From: Squalus acanthias
Taxonomy: Eukaryota
Direction of reading: 5' to 3'
Assembly (NCBI GenBank): GCA_030390025.1
Contig: CM059431.1
Location: 106,518,001 to 106,582,000, forward strand
DNA length: 64,000 bases
Positions 1-64,000 of the stretch are shown here, piece by piece. The notes under the pieces were generated by a model. It was not told where the DNA came from, searched no databases, and saw only the letters and a list, made by a program, of their open reading frames with translations. Within the stretch, counting starts at the first letter, position 1, and each line of letters begins with the position of its first letter. The position numbers and the translations under genes were made by a program.

Positions 1-326
1 AGGAGGCCATTCGGCCCGTCGTGCCTGTGCTGGCTCTTTGAAAGAGCAGTCGTGCTGAGTCCCACATCCCCCGCTTTTTGTCCGTAACCCTGTCAGTTCC
101 TCATCCTCCAGAACCTGTCCAACTCCCATTTAAAATTATTGATGGAATCAGCTTCCACCACCTTTTCAGGTGGAGTGTTCCAGATCCCCACAACTCTCTG
201 AGTGAAAACATTCCTCCTCATCTCCCCTCTAGATCTTTTGCCAATGATTGTGAATCTATGGCCTCTGGTTATTGACCCACTCACCAGAGGGAATAGTTTT
301 TCTCTCTCTACTCTATCAAAACCTCC
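1..326 (-). mobile_element. CR1 LINE 3' fragment (ORF2 C-terminus)
   Basis: Minus ORF GFDRVEREKLFPL...RRNVFTQRVVGIWN, typical of the CR1 ORF2 end; matches other CR1 copies in the window. Confidence 0.85.
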
Positions 327-6215: not shown

Positions 6216-8248
6216 CAAGTCTTATTACTGAAAAAGAAAGTCCCTGTCGCCTCATTATTCTGGTCTGAACTCGTTCTGCTTTTACATTTACAGCATTCCC
6301 TTCCCAAGTTCCAGTCCCCTTCACATTACGCTTCATACCCTGTGTGGCTGCTGGACTAATAATTGCATTGATATTCTACCAGAATATTTATGTCCTGCAC
6401 ACACACGACACGATGTATTTCAATATAAGTATGTTAAGCGAACACACTTGATGCATCAATTACATTTTTGCAGCAAACAGATTACGCCCTCAAAAGAAAT
6501 CAACTGCAATACTAATTTTGTCCTTGCTTTATTCAGGAAATTGTGCTTGCAGTGATACATCTTCTCAAAGGAATTAAGTTCTTCTGACAAAAATGCATAA
6601 AATTCCCTTACAAGCTTCTGAAAGGACGGTGTCAGCAGCAAGATATTTTATGATTAATTGTGTAACAGAAACAAACACACTGTTAGCAGTTTAAAAAAAA
6701 GTGATCCGTCCGCTAATGAATTCCCTTGAAATGTTGGACATTCGCACCTGTCTGTCCAGTTTTATTTGTGTTAGATCCCCTGCTCCTGAAAGCAGAACTT
6801 TATGCCTCAGAGTAAAATTAAGGTGTTTGATGAAATTTTGGGGGTTATGAGATGACTTGAATTAAGTGCTGTCTAGACGTGCACGGAAAACACTGAATAG
6901 AAATATTAGACTCCATAGTGACCCATGCTCGTAAATTACCAGCACAATGCATCAGATCCTACACCGGTAATTTCATCAAGATCAACAAGATGTAATCTTG
7001 AAAACCATTTGCACAGCACGAGGACAAATAGATGTCCTTGTCCTTCCAGACTGGTGGATTTGATGCTTAGAAGCCTGACTACTTCGCTGTCTGTAAGCAG
7101 CTATAGAGGGCAATTGTAAATAATTAAATAGAAATTTGTTACCCTTTGTCAAATGTATTTCTGATGTCACTCTTCCTCTCCTTCCATTAAGCGATCCCTT
7201 GATTAAATTTTAAAGTCTGAAAACAATTTGAAGGGCTGGAAATGCAAGGAGTGAACTAGAACTCGAGCGTCTGCAAAAGGAAAGTCATATTCTCTTAGGG
7301 AGCTGCTTGCAAAGTGGCAGGTGTTTTGTATGCGCTTTCCATGATGCTCTTTTCAGCCAGTGCGTAACACTGCTAAGTGCTGGTCATGCAGATGTTCCCT
7401 GTAGGTCATCTCTATTTAAAATCTTTGGTCCCCTTTCAGCCTCTCCCTGCACCACGGCTAGATGTTGTGCAAGGACCTGGATTTGTAGCCAGAATGGAAA
7501 TTTCAGCACATAGCCTGCAGCAGCCTCACATTAAAGTGAGTTCAGTAGTTGATGGCTCCTTATTGCTTATTAAATGTTTAATAGGCTCTGTGATTCACTC
7601 TAGGCTCTTATCTCTGCCCCAGGTGAATGAGGTGCTGTTCACCAGGGGCTGGACACATGAATTTCTCCAAGGAATCGTAAAACAGGGTAAGGAAAGGGCA
7701 CTGTGATTTAAATCCGCAGAGTCAGCCCAGCAGAGCTGAGCGGCAATTTAACGCTCAAAGCTGACGTTCCCAATCTTTTATGGTTAATCGAATTTAAATA
7801 TTTTAAAATCAAATGTTCCAATGTCGTTTGTTTCACAAAGAAAAATGACAGGTTCATTCATTCACTTGCTACAGGTGTAATCAGTAAAAGTGCAGTATTC
7901 ATTTTTGATTGTGTCTCCAAAGATTTAAGTGCTGCAGGGCTCATTTTAAAATACTTGTGTGATCTGAGAACAGTAGAAATGAGCCATTTTTTGTTCTTGG
8001 AGGATGTGCTTCCTTAAGTCACTCGCATGCAAGATAGGAAAAATGTATTGCCAAAAAGTTAACTGCAGCCGCACGCTGCATAATCATTCGTGTGGCAAGC
8101 TGCACAGACGATGGAAAAACTGGCTGAACTCTACCCAGAACGCACTGCCTGAGGCCTAGTTCTGTTAAAATGAGGCGACTGCAACTTCTGCCGTAATGCA
8201 TCGCTAAAGAGGTGTGGTGCAAAGTTACGGTATTCTGAGTGTTACTTA

Positions 8249-9073
8249 GGGGGCGATTTTGCCAGCCCTGGGGAGGCGGGTTTGGAGGCGGGACTGCTGG
8301 GAAAATGGCAGAATCTGGGGGCGGGTGCCCATCCCGCCTCCGTGCCATCTTCCCAGGAGGCGGGCAGCCGACCCGCGCCGGGTCCCGTCTTCTGGAGGCG
8401 GGAAGGGGATTACAGCCACTTAACTGCCTGTTAACAGGTAGTTCACAGGCAGTTAAGAGGATTATCCCCATTTTTCCAGCAGAGGCGCGGGCTTCCCAAC
8501 ATCGGGAAACCCCGCCAGGGTCATCGAAGCGAGCAGTGGGTCTGCAGGGTCCAAAAGTACGCTGTGGAGGTAAGTGATGGGTGCAAGTGTGGAGAGGTTA
8601 GGATATGAGGTGAGTGAAAAGTGATAGAAAATGTTTACTTACCTTTGTTTCTTCCTGCAGGCTTCAACAGTTGGGGATGCGGAGACTCTCGTATCTCACC
8701 GGCAGAGATGACAGATGGCTGCTGCATTCTCCGATGCAACAGCCATCTGACTTCTGCTCCGCAGATAGGTTTGATGAGTCTTGAATACAAGGACTCATCA
8801 AACAACAGAGAATGTCAATGTTTGACAGCTTCACAGAGCTGTCAAACGATGACAATTCATCTGCCAAAAATCTTTGCCAGATGAAACGTCATACGCTGAC
8901 GTTCTTTGTAACCGACTTCCCGTTAATTGGCCTGCTCAGCCCGCTGGGCAGGCTTAACAAAGTCAATCAAGGGAAAATAGCGTGGGTTGGCCACAAGTCG
9001 ATGGAGGTGGGACTAAAACCCGACAAGCAGCAGTCCCGCCTCCAACGCGCCCCCATTGGCAAAAATTACCCCC
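8249..9073. mobile_element. Harbinger-type MITE, subfamily A
   Basis: TIRs GGGGGCGATTTTGCCA / TGGCAAAAATTACCCCC; 3-bp flanks TTA/ATA; homologous to 59318-59898 and 50738-51602. Confidence 0.8.
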
Positions 9074-9346
9074 ATAGAATTTACAGCACAGAAACAGGCC
9101 AATCGACCCAACTGGTCCGTGCTGGTGTTCATGCTCCACACGAGCCTCCATCCACCCACTTCATCTAACCCTATCAGCATAACCTTCTATTCCCTTTCTC
9201 CCTCAATGCTTTATCTAGCTGCCCCTTAAATGCACCTTTGCTATTCGCAAGTTCCACATTCTAAATGCTCTCTGCATCAAGAAGTTTCTCCTGAATTCTT
9301 ATATTTGTGTCCTCTAGTTTTGCACTCCCACCCACAAGTGAAAACA
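9074..9346 (-). mobile_element. CR1 3' fragment (continues at ~12111-12163), split by the long CR1
   Basis: CR1 3' UTR on -; sequence resumes after 12110. Confidence 0.7.
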
Positions 9347-48085: not shown

Positions 48086-48974
48086 GGGGGAAAAATTCAG
48101 TTGGTTGCGCCTCCCGTTAGCGCCTTAAGAGGGCGCTAATGGGGCGCAAAGCAGCTAGCGCCCGGGCGCGGCAATGTTTGCGCCGCTCGCAAAATTAACT
48201 AGACATTTTGCGGCGGCGCTAAACACTACCGTCACGATCTCCTGCGCCGGCAGTTCGTGACGTCAGTCGAGAGCGCAACGCCCCGGTAGCGCCCCAGAGC
48301 GGATATTGAGTGGTGCCCCCTGCCTTACCGCCTGCCGCTAGCAACGACAGGTTGAGGGGAGCGTTTTGCAGTCAGGAAGGGACTGGGGGAGTGCTATTTA
48401 AAGGCGAACGCTTCCTGCCTTTTTTTGTTGGTGACATTTTTGCACCACGCATTCTGAGAGAGAGAGAGACTTCTGGAGAGATTCAACGCTGTGTGAAGGA
48501 GTTTTGGGTACTGAGCAGCACTTTGCAGGTTCATTTTGATTTGCCCTTCCTTGCATCTATTTAGAAGAGACTGTGGGGGCTGCACTCTGAGCTCTTTCCC
48601 TGGACCTCTCCATTGTTCTTTCCAGCAGATTTGATGTACAGGGCTCTCCAGACCGAGATTCAAGGCTGCAATGAGCAGGATGTGGATGGAGAGCAAGATC
48701 AACCCTCTCCTTTAAGAACTGGCCGACGCCATTGTGTCTCTGTTCCATTGCTGACTGACATCACATGAGCTTCGCCAGCGCTCTGAGGTAACGCCTCACT
48801 CCTCGGCCTTTGCGCCTTAAGACAGGTGTGAAGCGCCTGATTTAGCACTCCAATCACCTCCAGGGGCGATAAAAGCCAAGTTTGCAGTCGGAGGCGATAA
48901 TTAGCGCCAGGCACTAATCTTTGCGCCCGGCCGATAATTGCGCCCCAAATGGGGCGATACCGAATTTTTCCCCC
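48086..48974. mobile_element. Harbinger-type MITE, subfamily F
   Basis: TIRs GGGGGAAAAATTC / GAATTTTTCCCCC; perfect TSD AGT. Confidence 0.85.
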
Positions 48975-50737: not shown

Positions 50738-51602
50738 GGGCTGGATTTTACCAGCCCTGAGGAAGCGGGTTTGGAGGCGGGACTGCTGGGAAAATCAAAA
50801 AGAATGGGAGCGGGTCCCGAACCCACTCCTGACCCGCCTCCAACCAATCCTCCCGGAGTCGGGTCCCCGATTTGCGCAGGGACCCGACTCCTAGCGGCGG
50901 GAAGAGGATTATAGCCACTTAACTGCTTGTTAACAGAAAGTTAACAGGCAGTTAAGAGGCTTTTTCCAATTTTTAGACTTCTGCTGCGGGCTTCCCGACG
51001 TCGGGGAACCCCGCCAGGGTAAGTGAGGCGTGCTGTGGGTCTGTTGTAATGTTTGTGTATAGATGACAGCTGCAGAAGTGGTGTGAAGGATGCAATGGGA
51101 CACTGGTGAGTATCAGAGGTAAGGAAATGTTGGGAAAGTCATTTTTAATGTGTTTAGATTTTTCTGTAGGTGACAAGCTTTGAAGTGTTTGTGTGGCCTC
51201 ACCTCAATGGGAGAAGTGACAGATCGCTTCTGTACCCTCATCTGCAGCTGCCATCTGTTTTATCCTAAGGAGAGAATCATTGGAGAGCCGGGGTGCAAGG
51301 GCTCACCTTTGTACAGTGACTGTCAGTGTTTGACAACACCTCAATGCTGTCAAACACTGTCAAATCATCAGTCAAAAATAAATGGTTCATTGCCTTTAGG
51401 AAAACCGACAGATGAAGCGTCATCAACTGACGTCATCTGACACCGGCTTTCCCTTAATTGGCCGGCAAGCCCACAGGGCGGGCTTAACAAGGCCAATCAG
51501 GGGAAAATGCCGTCTGTGCGTCGGACGTCGCTGGAGGCGGGACTAGAACCCGGAAGGCAGCAGTCCCGCCCCCAACTCGTCTCTGTGAGTAAAATCCAGC
51601 CC
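50738..51602. mobile_element. Harbinger-type MITE, divergent A
   Basis: TIRs GGGCTGGATTTTAC / GTAAAATCCAGCCC; flanks GTA/ATA; same TIR as the autonomous element's right end. Confidence 0.85.
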
Positions 51603-54997: not shown

Positions 54998-55789
54998 GCT
55001 TGTTTAAAGCCACTCCTGTGTTCATATAATGCGATTTAGTCCCAAACGCAAAAGAGCACAGAGCATGGAGTTGGTGCACCGCACAGGGATACTTAAGTTA
55101 AATAAAAGGAGAGATTACAATAAATAGATAAAGCACATAACAAAATGAGGTCATGCTAATTGAGACTGATCCTGGATTCAAATGGTTAACAGTACATTTT
55201 CAATGAACGATACTTTGGATATTATTTTTAATTACAGCAGCGCTAGATCAGCGTACAACTGTCCAAGCTGTGTGGGTGTGTTTGTGTAGACCGAATGACA
55301 CGGTAAGATGGACACGTAGATCGTGTTTGGAGGATCATATTCTGTTCAGAGCAGAATGACCTGGCCACCCAAGGTTTATAGCAGGACTGTCATAATTCAC
55401 TTCACACCTAGGCAGGTGTTAAATTACTTATCTAATGCAGCAGCTCACTGTTTCTCATCAGCTGAAAATGGCAAAATACTCATATTAGTCATGGTGGGGG
55501 GGGTCGCCAGCTTTGCAGCTGAATGCAACTTTGGAGTCCAGGGTAAATTTTTAATTTGGAGACACAGCTAGAGAAAGCAAGTTCCCACTGCTTATACAGG
55601 ACTGTAGAGACCAATCCAGTTGTAGATTCACAATAAACTTAAATTTGTTGTTCAGTACAGAGACAGAGAAAGTCCCGACAGTATTATTACTGTGCCATTC
55701 AGCCTCTGAATTCAGCCTCTAAAAATCACCAGGATTTAAGGAGACAGGGTCTGGAATCTCATCAGTCTGGGAGTCTAGTGACAGCAACC

Positions 55790-56172
55790 CACGCGTGCGC
55801 ACACAGACACGCACGACCCAGACACGCACACACGCATGACACAGACCCGCACAGGTAGACACGCACGACACAGGCACACACGATGCAGACACGCACGACA
55901 CACATGCACAGGTAGACACGCACGACACAGGCACACACGATGCAGACACGCACGACACACACGCACAGGTAGACACGCACGACACAGGCACACACGATGC
56001 AGACACGCACGACACACACGCACAGGTAGACACGCACGACACAGGCACACACGATGCAGACACGCACGACACAGGCACGCACGATGCAGACACGCACACA
56101 CAGACCCGCACAGGTAAACACGCGCGACACAGACACGCACACGAGACATGCAATGCACAACACACACAGACA
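55790..56172. repeat. CA-rich minisatellite, 57-bp unit (~4 core copies)
   Basis: Unit GCACAGGTAGACACGCACGACACAGGCACACACGATGCAGACACGCACGACACACAC. Confidence 0.9.
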
Positions 56173-58637: not shown

Positions 58638-59320
58638 GAACATAAGGACATAAGACGGAGGAGCAGGAGTAGGTCATTTGGCCCCTCGAGCCTGCTCCGC
58701 CATTCAATAAGATCATGGCTGATTTGATCATGGCCTCAACTCCAGTTTCCTGCCCGCTCCCCATAACCCTTGACTCCTTTATCATTCAAAAATCTGTCTA
58801 TCTCCACCTTAAATATATTCAATGACCCAGCCTCCACAGCTCTCTGGGGTAGAGAATTCCAAAGATTCACGACCCTCTGAGAGAAGAATTTCCTCCTCAT
58901 TTCCGATTTAAAAGGGTGACCCTTATTCTAGATTCCCCCACGAGGGGAAACATCCTCTCTGCATCTACCCTGTCAAGCCCCTTCAGAATCTTATATGTTT
59001 CAATAATATCCCCTCTCATTCTGCTAAACTCCAATGAGTATAGGCCCAACCTGCTCAACCTTTCTTCATAAGATAACCCCTTCATCTCTGGAATCAACCT
59101 CGTGAACCTTCTCTGAACTGCCTCCAATGCAAGTATATCCTTCCTTAAATAAGGAGACCAAAACTATACGCAGTACTCCAGGTGTGGTCTCACCCAACGC
59201 CCTGTACAGTTGTAACAGGACTTCCCTACTTTTATACTCCATTCCCTTTGCAATAAAGGCCAACACTCCATTTGCCTTCCTAATTACTTGCTGTACCTGC
59301 ATGCTAACTTTTTGTGATTC
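58638..59320 (-). mobile_element. CR1 3' part
   Basis: AVQRRFTRLIP...GDIIETYKIL on -. Confidence 0.9.
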
Positions 59321-59898
59321 CCGACGTCGGGAAACCCCGCCAGGGTCACCGAGGCGGGCAGTGAGTCTGCGGGGGTTGGAGGGGTGCAAAAGTGCACTGT
59401 GGAGGTGAGTGATGGGTGCAAGTGTGGAGAGGTAAGTATGTGAGGTAAGTGGAAAGTGATAGAAAATGTTTACTTACCTTTGTTTCTTCCTGCAGGCTTC
59501 AACAGTTGGGGATGCGGAGACTCTCGCATCTCACCGACAGAGATGACAGATGGCTGCTGCATTCTCCAATGCAACAGCCATCTCATTTCTGCTCACAAAA
59601 GAGGTTTGATGAGTCTTGAATACAAGGACTCATCAAACAACATAGAATGTTAGTGTTTGACAGCTTCACAGAGCTGTCAAACGATAACAATTTCTCTGTC
59701 AAAAATTTTTGACAGATGAAACGTCATACGCTGACGTTCTCTGTAACCAGCTTCCCCTTAATTGGCCTGCTAAGCCCGGTGGGCGGGCTTAACAAAGACA
59801 ATCAAGGGAAAATAGAGTGGGTTGGCCACAAGTCGATGGAGGCGGGACTAAAACCCGACAAGCAGCAGTCCCCGCCTCCATTGGCAAAAATGCCCCCC
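59318..59898. mobile_element. Harbinger-type MITE A, left end missing
   Basis: Highly similar to 8493-9073; right TIR TGGCAAAAATGCCCCC. Confidence 0.85.
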
Positions 59899-60284
59899 CA
59901 GTGATGGGAGAGGCACTTAAGGTAGTTGACAAGCTTGTTAACTACTTGTTAACTGCTATTTTGACAAGGTTTTTCAATGTTGCCACATTTTCAGCGTGTT
60001 CTACGTCGTTCGGCAAACACGGCAGCTGATTGTGTCGGGTCTTCCAACAAGCTGAATCGTTCACAGCTGCAACTGTGGCTTAAAAGCTAACCTGTCACAT
60101 CAGTTCAATTTCAAATGCCAGAACTTTCTGATTTCAGGATTTGGAAGACATATTTCAGGTGTATTGAGGTTGTAAGTGTGTGTTGTGAGATCTATATGTA
60201 CTGTGACCTCCTTGGAATAACCTCGCTCCACATTGACTGAGCGCTTATTACATCTCATCCTTAACTGACATATAGACCAGCAAA

Positions 60285-61493
60285 ATGGGAACCATTTATT
60301 TCCTTTCATCCTGGTCCTCAGATTCGGAGGAACAGCAGCCGTGGCAGCAGCAGAACCAGGCTCACCAGCAGCACCAACAACAGGAGCATCAACCTTCTCC
60401 TCAGCCACCTGATGCTGCACAGGGCAGAGGCCATCAGCGCAGGGCTGCACTGCGCTGCAGGAGATACCCCCAACACAGGGTTTACAGGCAGAGGATGAGC
60501 TTCCTCAGCATGACTGAGCAGCAGTGCCAAAGGAGGCTGAGACTTTCGTGAGAGATTGTAGCAGACATCTGCACAATGCTGCACCAAGACCTGCAGCCCA
60601 GAGGAGCGGGTGGACACTCCTTACCAGTGGCTGTCAAAGTCACCACTGCCCTCAACTTCTTTGCTTCAGGATCCTTCCAGGGATCAGCAGCAGACATCAG
60701 TGGCATCTCCCAGTCGGCCGCCCACAGATGCATCACGCAGGTTACCGATGTCCTGTTTGCCAAGTCGGCCAATTACATTCACTTCTCAAAGGATGAAGCA
60801 AGTGTTACTGCACGGGTGGTTGAGTTTGCCAATCTGGCAGGCTTCCCAAGGGTGCAGGGCATCATCGAATACACCCATGTGGCCATCAGGGCACTCCATC
60901 ACAACCTAGCTGTATTTGTGAACCGCAAGGGCTTCCACTCCCTTAACGTCCAGCTGGTGTAGAACCACAGGAAGAACATTATGCATGTGTGCGCGAATTT
61001 CCATGACTCGTACATCCTGCGCCAGTCCACTGTGCCTCAGCTCTTCAATCTGCCAACCCAATGACCGAGACAAGGGCTATCCCCTGAAGACATGGCTAAT
61101 GACACCGATGAGGAGGCCATCAAATGAAGCTGAGAGCGCTACAATGACAGCCACATTTCCACCAGAAGCATCATGGAGCAAACCATAGGGTTGCTCAAAA
61201 CACACTTCAGGTGCCTGGACAGATCTGGTGGAGCCCTACAGTAAGCACCAGCCAGGGTTTCCAGAATCATCGTGGTCTGCTGTGCCCTGCACCACATCGC
61301 ACTGCAGCGTGGCTTACCACTGCCTGAGGAACAAGTGGCAGAGCGCACAGCCTCCTCAGAGGAGGAGGAGGAAGAGACGAATGAGGCTGCAGATGAAGAC
61401 CTGGCGTCAGCGGCTGTCCCAGTGCGACTAGCACATGAGCACATTGCTGGCCGTGAGGCAAGGGATGGACTAATCCATGCCAGATTTGCGTAA
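60285..61493 (+). pseudogene. Harbinger (HARBI1-like) DDE transposase, disrupted
   Basis: [67 protein letters not shown]; stops, deletion and frameshifts. Confidence 0.92.
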
Positions 61494-61788
61494 CTTTACA
61501 CAGCACAGACATATGGTTAGCACATGCACATGAGGGTTGGCAGGACCTCCCTTCCACACCATAGAGCATCTGAACAATGAACCATGCATTCCTATCACTC
61601 TCCACACCATTACTGCAGATGAAAGGCGCCCTCACCTCTCAGTGTGCCACTTCCAATTTTGAGCACACATAGGGCAACGCATTGAAACATTCACGTCGCA
61701 TTACTTTAATACAATAAAAATGAAGAGCACAAACGTAACTTGTTTATATGAAAAAACCCAAGTGACTACCCTTGTGACTATTTGTGTG

Positions 61789-63337
61789 TTAGCTTTCTCT
61801 TATGTGTACTTCTACGTGGTGCTTCCCCTGTGGCTTCAGCAGATGTAGAGGCAGCCTGCTCACTTCCCTGCTGTGCCTGCTTAGACGCCTTTGGCGATCG
61901 TTCTCTGGGTTTGGGAGCCTTGGAAGGTCACGCCAAAGTCTGCTCCTCCTGCGGCTGTGCAGGAAAGAGTTGGCCATCTCTGTTGGCTAAGGCATCTGGG
62001 GCTCTGACCTAGGGCTCGGCAGTGGCATGGGAGTGTGAGTACTTGGAGAGGAGCCCCCACTTCCTTGTTCTCGACCACCACCATCTCTCTCATGGGTAAC
62101 CCACACTTCACTGCTAGCAAGTAGCTGGAGAGCATCTTGCTGCACATCAGTGGGGCCATGTGGACCCGTCTCTGTACTGACAGTCCTCATAACGGGGACA
62201 TCTATGTACCCCTGGTTCCTCTCCTTTATGGATGCCCATCTATCCTCCATAGCTGATCATCCATCTAGAAGAGTCACCATGTTGGTTTGTGTCTGGCGAT
62301 TTATGTCCTCCATGGAGGTTGCCATCCTTTCCATGGTGGCACCTACATTCGCCATTGCCTCCACCACAGCATTGCTCATGTTTGAGATAGACTCCCCCAT
62401 TCTCTGCACACTCACAGTTACCATGGATGCAAACCCAGACAGAGCCTCCTGCACTTGTTCCTGAAGCTCCAGCACCACTCTCTTTCTGGATGGCCCCCAA
62501 GGCACAGGGTCCACATGCAGCTGAGCAGAGCTAGGAGCGTCCTGCGGCCTCCAACGAGGACTTTCCACTGCTGCCCCTGTCTCCACCATCTGCTGATGCT
62601 CACTTGTGAGCTGTGATGCACCAGGTGACAACACTACTCTATCTCGCAAACGACCCACTGAGGTGTGCATCTCTGCGCTGGTGCAGGGTGCACTCATTTC
62701 TGCTGACACTGCTCCCTCAGAGGCTGGAGGCTTCTCTGAGAAGGCCTCCTACTCTTCCTCCAGCACAGTGGGGAGGTAGGCTTTTGATGGTCCTGTGGGG
62801 GAGTAAAGGCATGAGTTAGACATGTGATATGTAGGTTGCAGACACATCCCATTGTGCAGATGATCAGCATTCAATTTCTATGAACATCAGATCCCATATG
62901 AGTCATGAATGCAAAATCAGTGGGTTGGAAATCAATTCTGTCACCAGCTTGCTGTACTGCGTCCGTCCCTCTGTCCCCCACTTCCAGCTCCTCTGCACCT
63001 CCCACGATCTCCAGAGGTACCTCCTCAGCGTGCGTTAGATGCGCCACGGATGGTGGGCCTCCTCCTGTCCTCCCCCTCTCCCTCTTATTGTGGGCTCTCT
63101 TTTCCTGCAATGAGGGAGACAAGTGGAGTTTCAGAGAGATTGATGGAGTGAGTGTAAAGAATGGATAACACTGACCTCCTCAGCAATTTTCAGCCAGGCT
63201 GCCTTGGTGTGCTGAGAAGACTTCCTCCTTCCATCGGAAGGGAAGAGGACCTCCTTGCTTCCTCTTACTCCCTCCACAAGAGCATGGAGGGAGTCATCAG
63301 CAAACCGGGGAGCAGCCTTGGTCCCTTGCACTGCCAT
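61789..63337 (-). pseudogene. Harbinger Myb/SANT-like partner ORF, spliced, disrupted
   Basis: APRFADDSLHALVEGV..KEVLF..AWLKIAEEV; exon 63104-62945 EKRAHNKRERGRTGGGPP; acceptor before 62792; 3' boundary approximate. Confidence 0.8.
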
Positions 63338-63567
63338 GCCTGCAGAAAAAAGAAAGTCCTAATCAAAGGGGACATGGCCCCCTTAAATATAGAGGCTCCC
63401 AGCGCGTCATCAAGCTTGATCAGCTGACCCGCACCCACCGATTGGGTCTTTAATGAGGCCAATCTGGGGGAAATCATTATTGTAGGGTGGCTGGAACTGG
63501 GAGCGGGACCGGAACCCGCCAAACGCGGACTCGCCATCATCCCGCCTCCGGGTGGAAAATCCAGCCC

Positions 63568-63737: not shown

Positions 63738-64000
63738 GGGGTAGAAATTAGGCCGCGCCCCATTTGGGGCGCAAATATCGTCTGGATGCAAATATTAGCG
63801 CCTGGCGCTAATTATCGGCACTGACGGGAAACTTCACTTTTACCGCCCCGGGAGGTGAGTGGAGCGCTAAATCAGGCGCTGCACACCTGTCTTAAGGCGC
63901 AAAGGCCAAGGAGTGAGGCGCTACCTCAGAGCGCTGGCGAAGCTCATGTAATGTCAGTCAGCAATGGAACACACACACAATGGCACGGGCCAGTTCTTAA
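63738..64000. mobile_element. MITE F end (runs off the window)
   Basis: GGGGTAGAAATT terminus; reverse complement of ~48711-48974. Confidence 0.85.

Follow-up and report, generated by a model that had tools for sequence, protein, structure and literature searches.

What does it mean when a transposon that encodes nothing carries a run of covarying hairpins next to splice signals? The question is raised by an 825-bp element lying in the window analysed here, a stretch of 64 kb (64,000 nucleotides) from the 3.7-Gb genome of Squalus acanthias (Table 1). A preliminary description of the window had seen in it a Harbinger MITE whose five hairpins formed a structured non-coding RNA cargo maintained by selection. 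We find that the hairpins are leftovers of the transposon's own two genes, rebuilt stepwise into matched stems as the family diversified, and our results suggest that the interior of the family was tuned for spread.

The name given to the element was right, as by every feature testable here it is a PIF/Harbinger MITE. The TIRs of subfamily B are GGGCTGGATTTT and AAAATCCAGCCC, and they are degenerate in subfamily A. The 3-bp target-site duplication is exact in 30 of the 52 copies scored among the 60 fetched from A and B, and the target of these copies is palindromic (RAYAC-NNN-GTRTY), A/T-rich and not strictly TWA. Coding capacity is absent, the Myb-like relic having lost its start and showing a stop at codon 6. 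Used as queries, the A and B copies of the window drew 7,858 and 6,924 first-look candidates respectively, which are not copy numbers, and at least 40 scored full-length matches each, from which 30 copies of A and 30 of B were fetched; a 30-mer lying to the right of the array finds 6,483 exact matches in the genome, against none for the reversed control.

Several observations on the surroundings of these copies can be added. The left TIR of subfamily A exists in two alternative types, GGGCGCGATC and GGGCTGGATT (8249-8260 in the window copy; termini of L001-L030), the right TIR in several, and the end types vary independently of the interior, as if ends had been swapped between lineages. Related Harbinger elements lie no more than 1.5-3 kb from many fetched copies (flanks of L023, L028, L039, L042, L006 and L098), and L006 has a long element with a subfamily-A copy inserted close to its right TIR. 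In the window, the truncated A copy and the decayed two-gene Harbinger (together 59316-63567) both lose their left parts at one LINE piece, which we take to be CR1-like; the transposase piece of this Harbinger draws 76,359 first-look candidates genome-wide. The window also holds a tandem repeat of TG-rich units with a 57-bp period (55784-56125) and two inverted copies, 87% alike, of a GC-rich repeat with a GGGGTAGAAATT-like end (63738-64000 and 48712-48974), possibly a further DNA transposon.

Table 1. Features of the window referred to in the text (position 1 is its first nucleotide).
Feature	Positions	Strand	Remarks
Non-autonomous Harbinger MITE, subfamily A	8249-9073	+	Consensus 826 bp; 12-bp imperfect TIRs; flanks TTA / ATA
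Left palindrome	8416-8460		TTAACTGCCTGTTAAC-5 nt-GTTAACAGGCAGTTAA; same sequence in the consensi of A and B; subterminal, like several other stems beyond the array
GT-AG intron-like signals	8570-8660	+	Transposase 5' UTR relic; consensus A has three GGTRAG donors, CTTAC, pyrimidine tract, CAG
AAG/GTAAGT	8637-8645	-	Plus strand reads ACTTACCTT; in F, D, A, G, E; complements the plus donor (extra stem, consensus A)
Sixth small hairpin of subfamily A	8674-8697		Two G-T pairs; additional to the five of the preliminary description
H1	8706-8755		Last ~50 nt of transposase 5' UTR, just before the lost ATG
Internal deletion junction (approximate)	8757-8759		AGCA common to both sides in the longer relative P1
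H2	8769-8803		Relic of Myb-like ORF codons ~1-18, minus strand
H3	8813-8854		Myb-like 5' UTR relic; TTTGACAG dyad
H4	8849-8892		In C0, C, B, H the loop holds CCTTTAA of the Myb gene; in F, D, D2, A, G, E 25 nt deleted
H5	8885-8903		Remains of tandem palindromes TGACGCGTCA and TGACGTCA, Myb-gene promoter
Right subterminal stem	8999-9047		A-T / G-C double change, A vs B; outside the array
Subfamily B copy	50738-51602	+	72% identical to A; nearer the coding ancestor; H1/H2 weaker; TATA loop retained
Subfamily A copy, left-truncated	59316-59898	+	Within left end of autonomous-type element
Decayed two-gene Harbinger	59899-63567	+	Transposase on + strand, ~60285-61493; Myb-like gene on - strand from 63337

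The five stems first described are all present in the window copy, with arms at 8706-8727/8734-8755 (H1), 8769-8780/8792-8803 (H2), 8813-8830/8837-8854 (H3), 8849-8868/8873-8892 (H4) and 8885-8891/8897-8903 (H5), and both their number and their folding lie far beyond those of shuffled sequences. Indeed, 8661-8915 contains six stems of score 7 or more, against a mean of 0.74 and a maximum of 4 in 300 shuffles, and its RNA fold reaches z -9.69 on the plus strand and -9.15 on the minus, equalled by none of 200 shuffles on either strand. What did not hold is the idea of a bounded five-hairpin module, as stems span the whole of the A and B consensi: at score 8 or more there are 18 in consensus A (44% of bases paired; shuffled A 0.55, maximum 3, 100 shuffles) and 14 in consensus B (32% paired), compared with 3 in the left 594 bp of P1 and 0-4 in four autonomous-type ends.

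Other details of the preliminary description stood in part. The closure of H1 by TGCGGAG/CTCCGCA exists in the window copy but fails elsewhere, being found in one of 30 subfamily-A copies; in consensus A, TGCGG pairs locally in the sixth hairpin instead. The paired changes reported for H2 between A and B amount to four double-sided changes, with 3 of 12 pairs broken. H4 of the copy starting at 59316 does pair, but rather than a variant it is the consensus form, a 30-bp perfect palindrome without loop, relative to which the window copy carries private breaks; after the 25-nt deletion H4 is a loopless palindrome in A, D and D2. H5 is a genuine stem, but in B it descends from two tandem CRE-like palindromes. 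The Myb-gene promoter labels used here, including the TATA-like CCTTTAA and the CRE-like sites, are those we presume.

Where do the stems come from? A profile built on A and B picked up two long elements by their left ends. The proteins of one long element (L061) match DDE_Tnp_4 (E 4.3e-38) and Myb_DNA-bind_5 (E 2e-08); a 38-aa piece of L092 alone gave no Pfam hit, nor did the 136-aa piece of the window's decayed Harbinger. A motif search aimed at places where the Myb-like frame passes into B-like letters gave 114 in the genome (control 0). Thirteen were fetched, of which four are of a type that we call P1 and most others of a type, P2, with an intact Myb-like start. P1 is a non-autonomous Harbinger of ~1.55 kb with both gene relics and the shared stop at Myb codon 6 (L097:2707-3901 with L084; L098); the element is multi-copy. 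C0, the earliest MITE subfamily, has a consensus that matches P1 at 91% identity as far as the transposase 5' UTR reaches, and at 87% beginning with Myb codon ~18. Translated from the minus strand, the region of H2 gives MTAQRQRAAPRFSNDSLH in the intact-start P2 elements, ITAQR-stop-TLAPRLSNDSLH in P1 and ITVQR-stop-ALAPRLSNDSLL in B, and the Myb-like reading is unrecognisable in A.

These alignments show the MITE to be an internal-deletion Harbinger in which the transposase 5' UTR is fused to the Myb-like start, UTR and promoter. The chain of homology from the MITE through P1 to the intact-start family ties it to a parent with a DDE transposase and a Myb/SANT protein, and since each hairpin maps to the element's own transposase UTR or Myb-like gene, the notion of an RNA "cargo" falls. 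P1 itself is a close relative and not the literal parent, because its far-left end differs from that of C0. The window's own autonomous-type element was rejected as parent, having only short end matches, and is by this comparison a distant relative. In P2 copies (L092:1-200) the Myb-like start GTGCAGTCA is complemented ~40 nt away in the 5' UTR, and this complement could cover the start codon in the mRNA.

The history of the stems can be followed along ten subfamily consensi (copies: A 30, B 30, C 8, D 8, E 7, F 7, G 7, H 7, C0 7, D2 2), bearing in mind that the consensus of C contains a gap at H5 which is an artefact, that D2 derives from two copies and that five of 20 sampled loci, truncated within the array, were left out. 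The consensus tree, rooted by likeness to P1, branches in the order C0, C, B, H, then (F,(D,D2)) and (A,(G,E)), with supports of 0.915-1.0; we take gains and losses from comparing present-day consensi in pairs. Along this ladder the plus-strand fold z (60 shuffles each) goes from -4.0 for the P1 pieces, -4.7 for C0 and -3.8 for C to -5.5 for B, -8.2 for H and -8.5 to -11.7 for D2, D, G, F, E and A. The minus strand mirrors it at -3.6 to -9.9 (60 shuffles each), and the plus strand is the stronger by 1-3 units in all six derived consensi. Hand-read Watson-Crick pairs in H1 grow from about 10 in C0 to 22 in F, and left-half pairing rises unevenly, from 0.13 in P1 to 0.15-0.40 in the MITEs.

This gain exceeds that of neutral simulations. 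When one consensus was mutated by the number of its differences to the neighbouring consensus, the derived fold energy beat all 60 simulations in nine of nine consensus pairs (H to A: -114.9 vs -65.6 +/- 7.5), and the paired-base count exceeded all 300 in five of nine. RNAalifold finds double changes in 8 of 49 pairs; its covariation term is only -0.89 and H2 is under-called because H1 and H2 shift register by one base on the fixed alignment. The covariation announced in the preliminary description is therefore found among subfamily consensi, by double changes and by neutral simulations alike. The outer stem of H2, for instance, comes in three forms, GTTTGAT/ATCAAAC (A, G and E), TTCTAAGT/ACTTAGAA (F) and TCTAACT/AGTTAGA (D, with D2), and a G-C pair of F is C-G in D; H1 forms distinct long stems in F/D and in E; and in H5 an A-T pair of A corresponds to C-G in G/E, both sides having changed.

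Two classes of stems can be distinguished, sequence-fixed dyads (H3, H4 and H5) and sequence-free stems (H1 and H2). Among the six derived consensi (F, D, D2, A, G and E) the 22 core and six loop bases of H3 are unchanged, 28 out of 28, and changes per site are 0.17 in the arms of H4 and H5, 0.61 in those of H1, 0.75 in those of H2 and 0.73-1.25 in loops and linkers. The fixed dyads hold TGACAG and TGACG sites at fixed spacing. Taken as a series, the consensi show an interior which, freed from coding, was rebuilt across at least ten subfamilies into short inverted repeats.

At what level was this pairing constrained? In 101 copies, which are the best matches to the queries and in which columns with shared variants were set aside, private non-CpG changes fall on paired positions (107 of 9,174, 1.17%) as often as on unpaired ones (204 of 15,577, 1.31%; p 0.34), and a single compensatory double change stands against 107 stem-breaking ones. 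Purifying selection on structure was thus not detected in single genomic copies among these 101; the structure is not maintained after insertion, and the copying of one arm from the other is infrequent per copy. The selection on structure proposed earlier would then belong to another level: pairing is constrained among amplified lineages, as the consensi show, while single copies decay neutrally, and we infer that the constraint acted in cis on lineages then being mobilised.

Whether it acted on DNA or on RNA is a separate issue. A preference for G-U over A-C mismatches, expected by the preliminary description of an RNA on one strand, did not reach significance, with a slight plus lean and low power. 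On the consensi a strand-symmetric finder gave 16 G-T, 13 A-C and 52 other mismatches, these counts not being independent; hand-defined helices of the consensi gave 9, 3 and 9, corresponding to five against two independent events; and shared sub-lineage variants, few in number, gave three G-T against four A-C. Fold energies computed with DNA parameters lie within 5 kcal/mol between strands. The loopless palindromes of A, D and D2, together with covarying subterminal stems, favour a DNA-level reading. Combined with the lack of G-U bias at this low power and with stems running over the whole element, they point to a strand-neutral, cis-acting feature.

However, one aspect of the ladder is unexplained by DNA alone, namely that plus-strand donors and acceptor were kept and strengthened along it. 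All the splice signals pointed out in the preliminary description (GT-AG at 8570-8660 and 51019-51169, minus-strand AAG/GTAAGT at 8645-8637) are in the sequence. The plus-strand acceptor is kept in all ten subfamilies and passes along the ladder from TTTAG/T to a branch-like CTTAC, a pyrimidine tract and CAG, and the nine MITE left halves each have at least one GGTRAG donor on the plus strand (1-4, at positions that turn over), compared with one in P1. Simple inheritance of the intron holds only partly, as P1 has one donor and a weaker acceptor and L061/L062 have other sites; the first donor was found in one other long element (L042:1135-1500). At 8637-8645, ACTTACCTT is placed like a branch point, a role suggested by the branch-point consensus, and ACTTACCT, found in the F/D/A/G/E clade only, resembles the 5' end of U1 snRNA and complements the element's own donor.

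The splicing implied by these signals was not seen among the joints listed from RNA. Two raw RNA runs of uncertain species, tissue and strandedness, read to about 24% and 31%, contain 4,385 and 14,620 reads on the element, mostly 85-95% alike, so that one highly expressed copy could dominate. No GT-AG joint occurs among the 15 joints listed of 141, depth is highest inside the 8570-8660 intron, and no discrete starts or ends were called in these runs. Run X17 is skewed 13:1 in strand over 8572-8726, a skew that reverses right of 8850; a library of the usual stranded type would make this divergent transcription from the relic Myb promoter, with minus-strand RNA over 8572-8726 rather than the plus-strand RNA proposed. 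An Rfam scan of 8200-9150 returned ten sub-threshold matches and none at gathering score; the best had E 0.036 and 23 bits, where 49 are needed.

From the origin, the ladder, the covariation, the invariance of the dyads and the neutral decay of the copies we infer what the interior may do. Our preferred reading, held tentatively as it may well prove wrong, is that of a strand-neutral DNA feature acting in cis, its palindromes selected among transposing lineages for mobility. The fixed dyads would be putative protein-binding sites remodelled from the promoter of the Myb gene, recognised by host factors or by the element's Myb-like protein, and the free stems would act as strand-neutral DNA structure, be it cruciforms, single-strand hairpins or nucleosome-poor DNA. 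Together they may raise the odds that the helper transposase engages the copy or that it is restored after excision. Some of the mutations were probably supplied by template switching, such as the A opposite a bulged T in H3 and the H4 loop deletion, and the products would then have been retained by selection. The TGACAG cluster, central in the element, is absent from the eight sampled copies of the intact-start autonomous family, and so is probably not a site that the element's Myb-like protein requires; likelier candidates for its sites are the GGCGGG repeats, of which an element carries 8-10.

The same constraint could have been exerted through a transcript. A left promoter would drive a short plus-strand RNA, and structure selected in this RNA would act on its own template, the U1 and splice signals and a hairpin-packed exon 2 keeping the copy open or unsilenced, or blocking antisense pairing. 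The conserved acceptor and multiplied donors, the concentration of the pairing gain in the would-be exon 2, the slight plus lean in fold z and in G-T, and the RNA reads on the element all speak for it. Yet the runs give no GT-AG joint, a depth that peaks in the intron and no discrete ends, and the X17 skew points to a minus-strand RNA if the library is of the common kind; moreover, a palindrome without a loop cannot form an RNA hairpin in its middle, and pairs broken by shared variants turn into A-C no less often than into G-T. We regard this close rival as somewhat unlikely, and rather unlikely the bolder claim that a MITE lineage evolved de novo, from dead gene parts, a densely structured, spliced unit of non-coding transcription which works on its own template to license or protect transposition, with about ten stages preserved. 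The strong form of the preliminary description, a structured RNA carried as cargo and acting in trans, can draw on the strong folding and on the covariation among consensi, but what it consists of is UTR, ORF start and promoter of the element itself, it has no Rfam match at gathering score and its copies decay neutrally; a trans-acting RNA would in addition not be expected to be selected on each of many non-autonomous lineages, and we consider it highly improbable.

Nor need anything have been selected if template switching, during synthesis linked to transposition, perfects quasi-palindromes and copies arms, a process known to create and maintain hairpins (PMC8794818). Several steps have this character: between C and B, H3 gained the very base that pairs with its bulge; H4 lost its loop while its right arm became the complement of its left; in the F clade the left arm of H2 keeps 1-3 of 8 letters of H and the right arm 5-6 of 9; and the arms of H1 and H2 change at the rate of loops. 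That A and F overwrote opposite arms of H2 was rejected, only the F side being supported, since in A the changes fall on left and right arm alike (3 of 8 and 3 of 9 letters of H kept). A purely neutral process fits poorly with the lone compensatory double change, with an H3 that is invariant down to its loop, with the step from B to H, which gained two pairs in H1 and left two mismatches between them, with H2, H3 and H5 loops none of which is inverted, and with splice signals that were conserved as well. As a full explanation it seems to us improbable.

How does the family compare with known systems? Like the Tourist-like PIF/Harbinger MITEs and mPing of rice, it is a non-coding deletion derivative with short TIRs and a 3-bp duplication, and those elements are mobilised in trans (PMC9921582, PMC13668399). 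Internal sequence raises or lowers mPing mobility, an effect put down to GC content and nucleosomes, hairpins not being mentioned in the accessible text (PMC9921582), and a deletion origin of Harbinger MITEs is likewise documented (PMC13668399). A hairpin array, covariation and stepwise gain of stems are not reported in the available parts of these two papers; in our family the interior goes back to known gene parts, and there is a ladder of structure gain. In zebrafish, Harbinger3_DR has a palindromic target of ~15 bp, AAACACCWGGTCTTT (PMC3016246), where ours is RAYAC-NNN-GTRTY, and both systems have a two-gene parent; its Myb-like protein binds a 9-bp subterminal motif (PMC9710019), whereas the invariant dyads described here are central and absent from the intact-start family sampled. 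The mosquito MITEs Gnome, Elf and Goblin were born from Ozma by microhomology deletion (PMC3814204), as here between short words shared by both sides (6-8 bp in those elements, the 4-bp AGCA in ours), and in both cases an intermediate is still in the genome; they are Tc1/mariner elements, and the available text describes no later build-up of internal stems. Finally, bulge-filling insertion, arm extension and multi-base matched changes recall template-switch hairpins (PMC8794818), which are described there in RNA genes under selection, while ours lie in a cut-and-paste element without RNA intermediate and show no loop inversion (H2, H3, H5). Internal control of mobility, birth by microhomology deletion, subterminal binding of the Myb-like protein and the deletion origin of Harbinger MITEs are thus already known. 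Among the open-access papers listed by our searches we found neither this MITE family nor a Harbinger MITE hairpin array built stepwise, nor any MITE interior built stepwise from gene relics into covarying hairpins.

The family bears on the question of why MITEs out-amplify their parents, and of the mechanism by which internal sequence, known to matter, does so. It offers a natural polarised series from coding relic to strongly self-complementary interior, each stage of it represented by many copies. It also calls for caution, as covarying hairpins beside splice signals need not mean an RNA gene.
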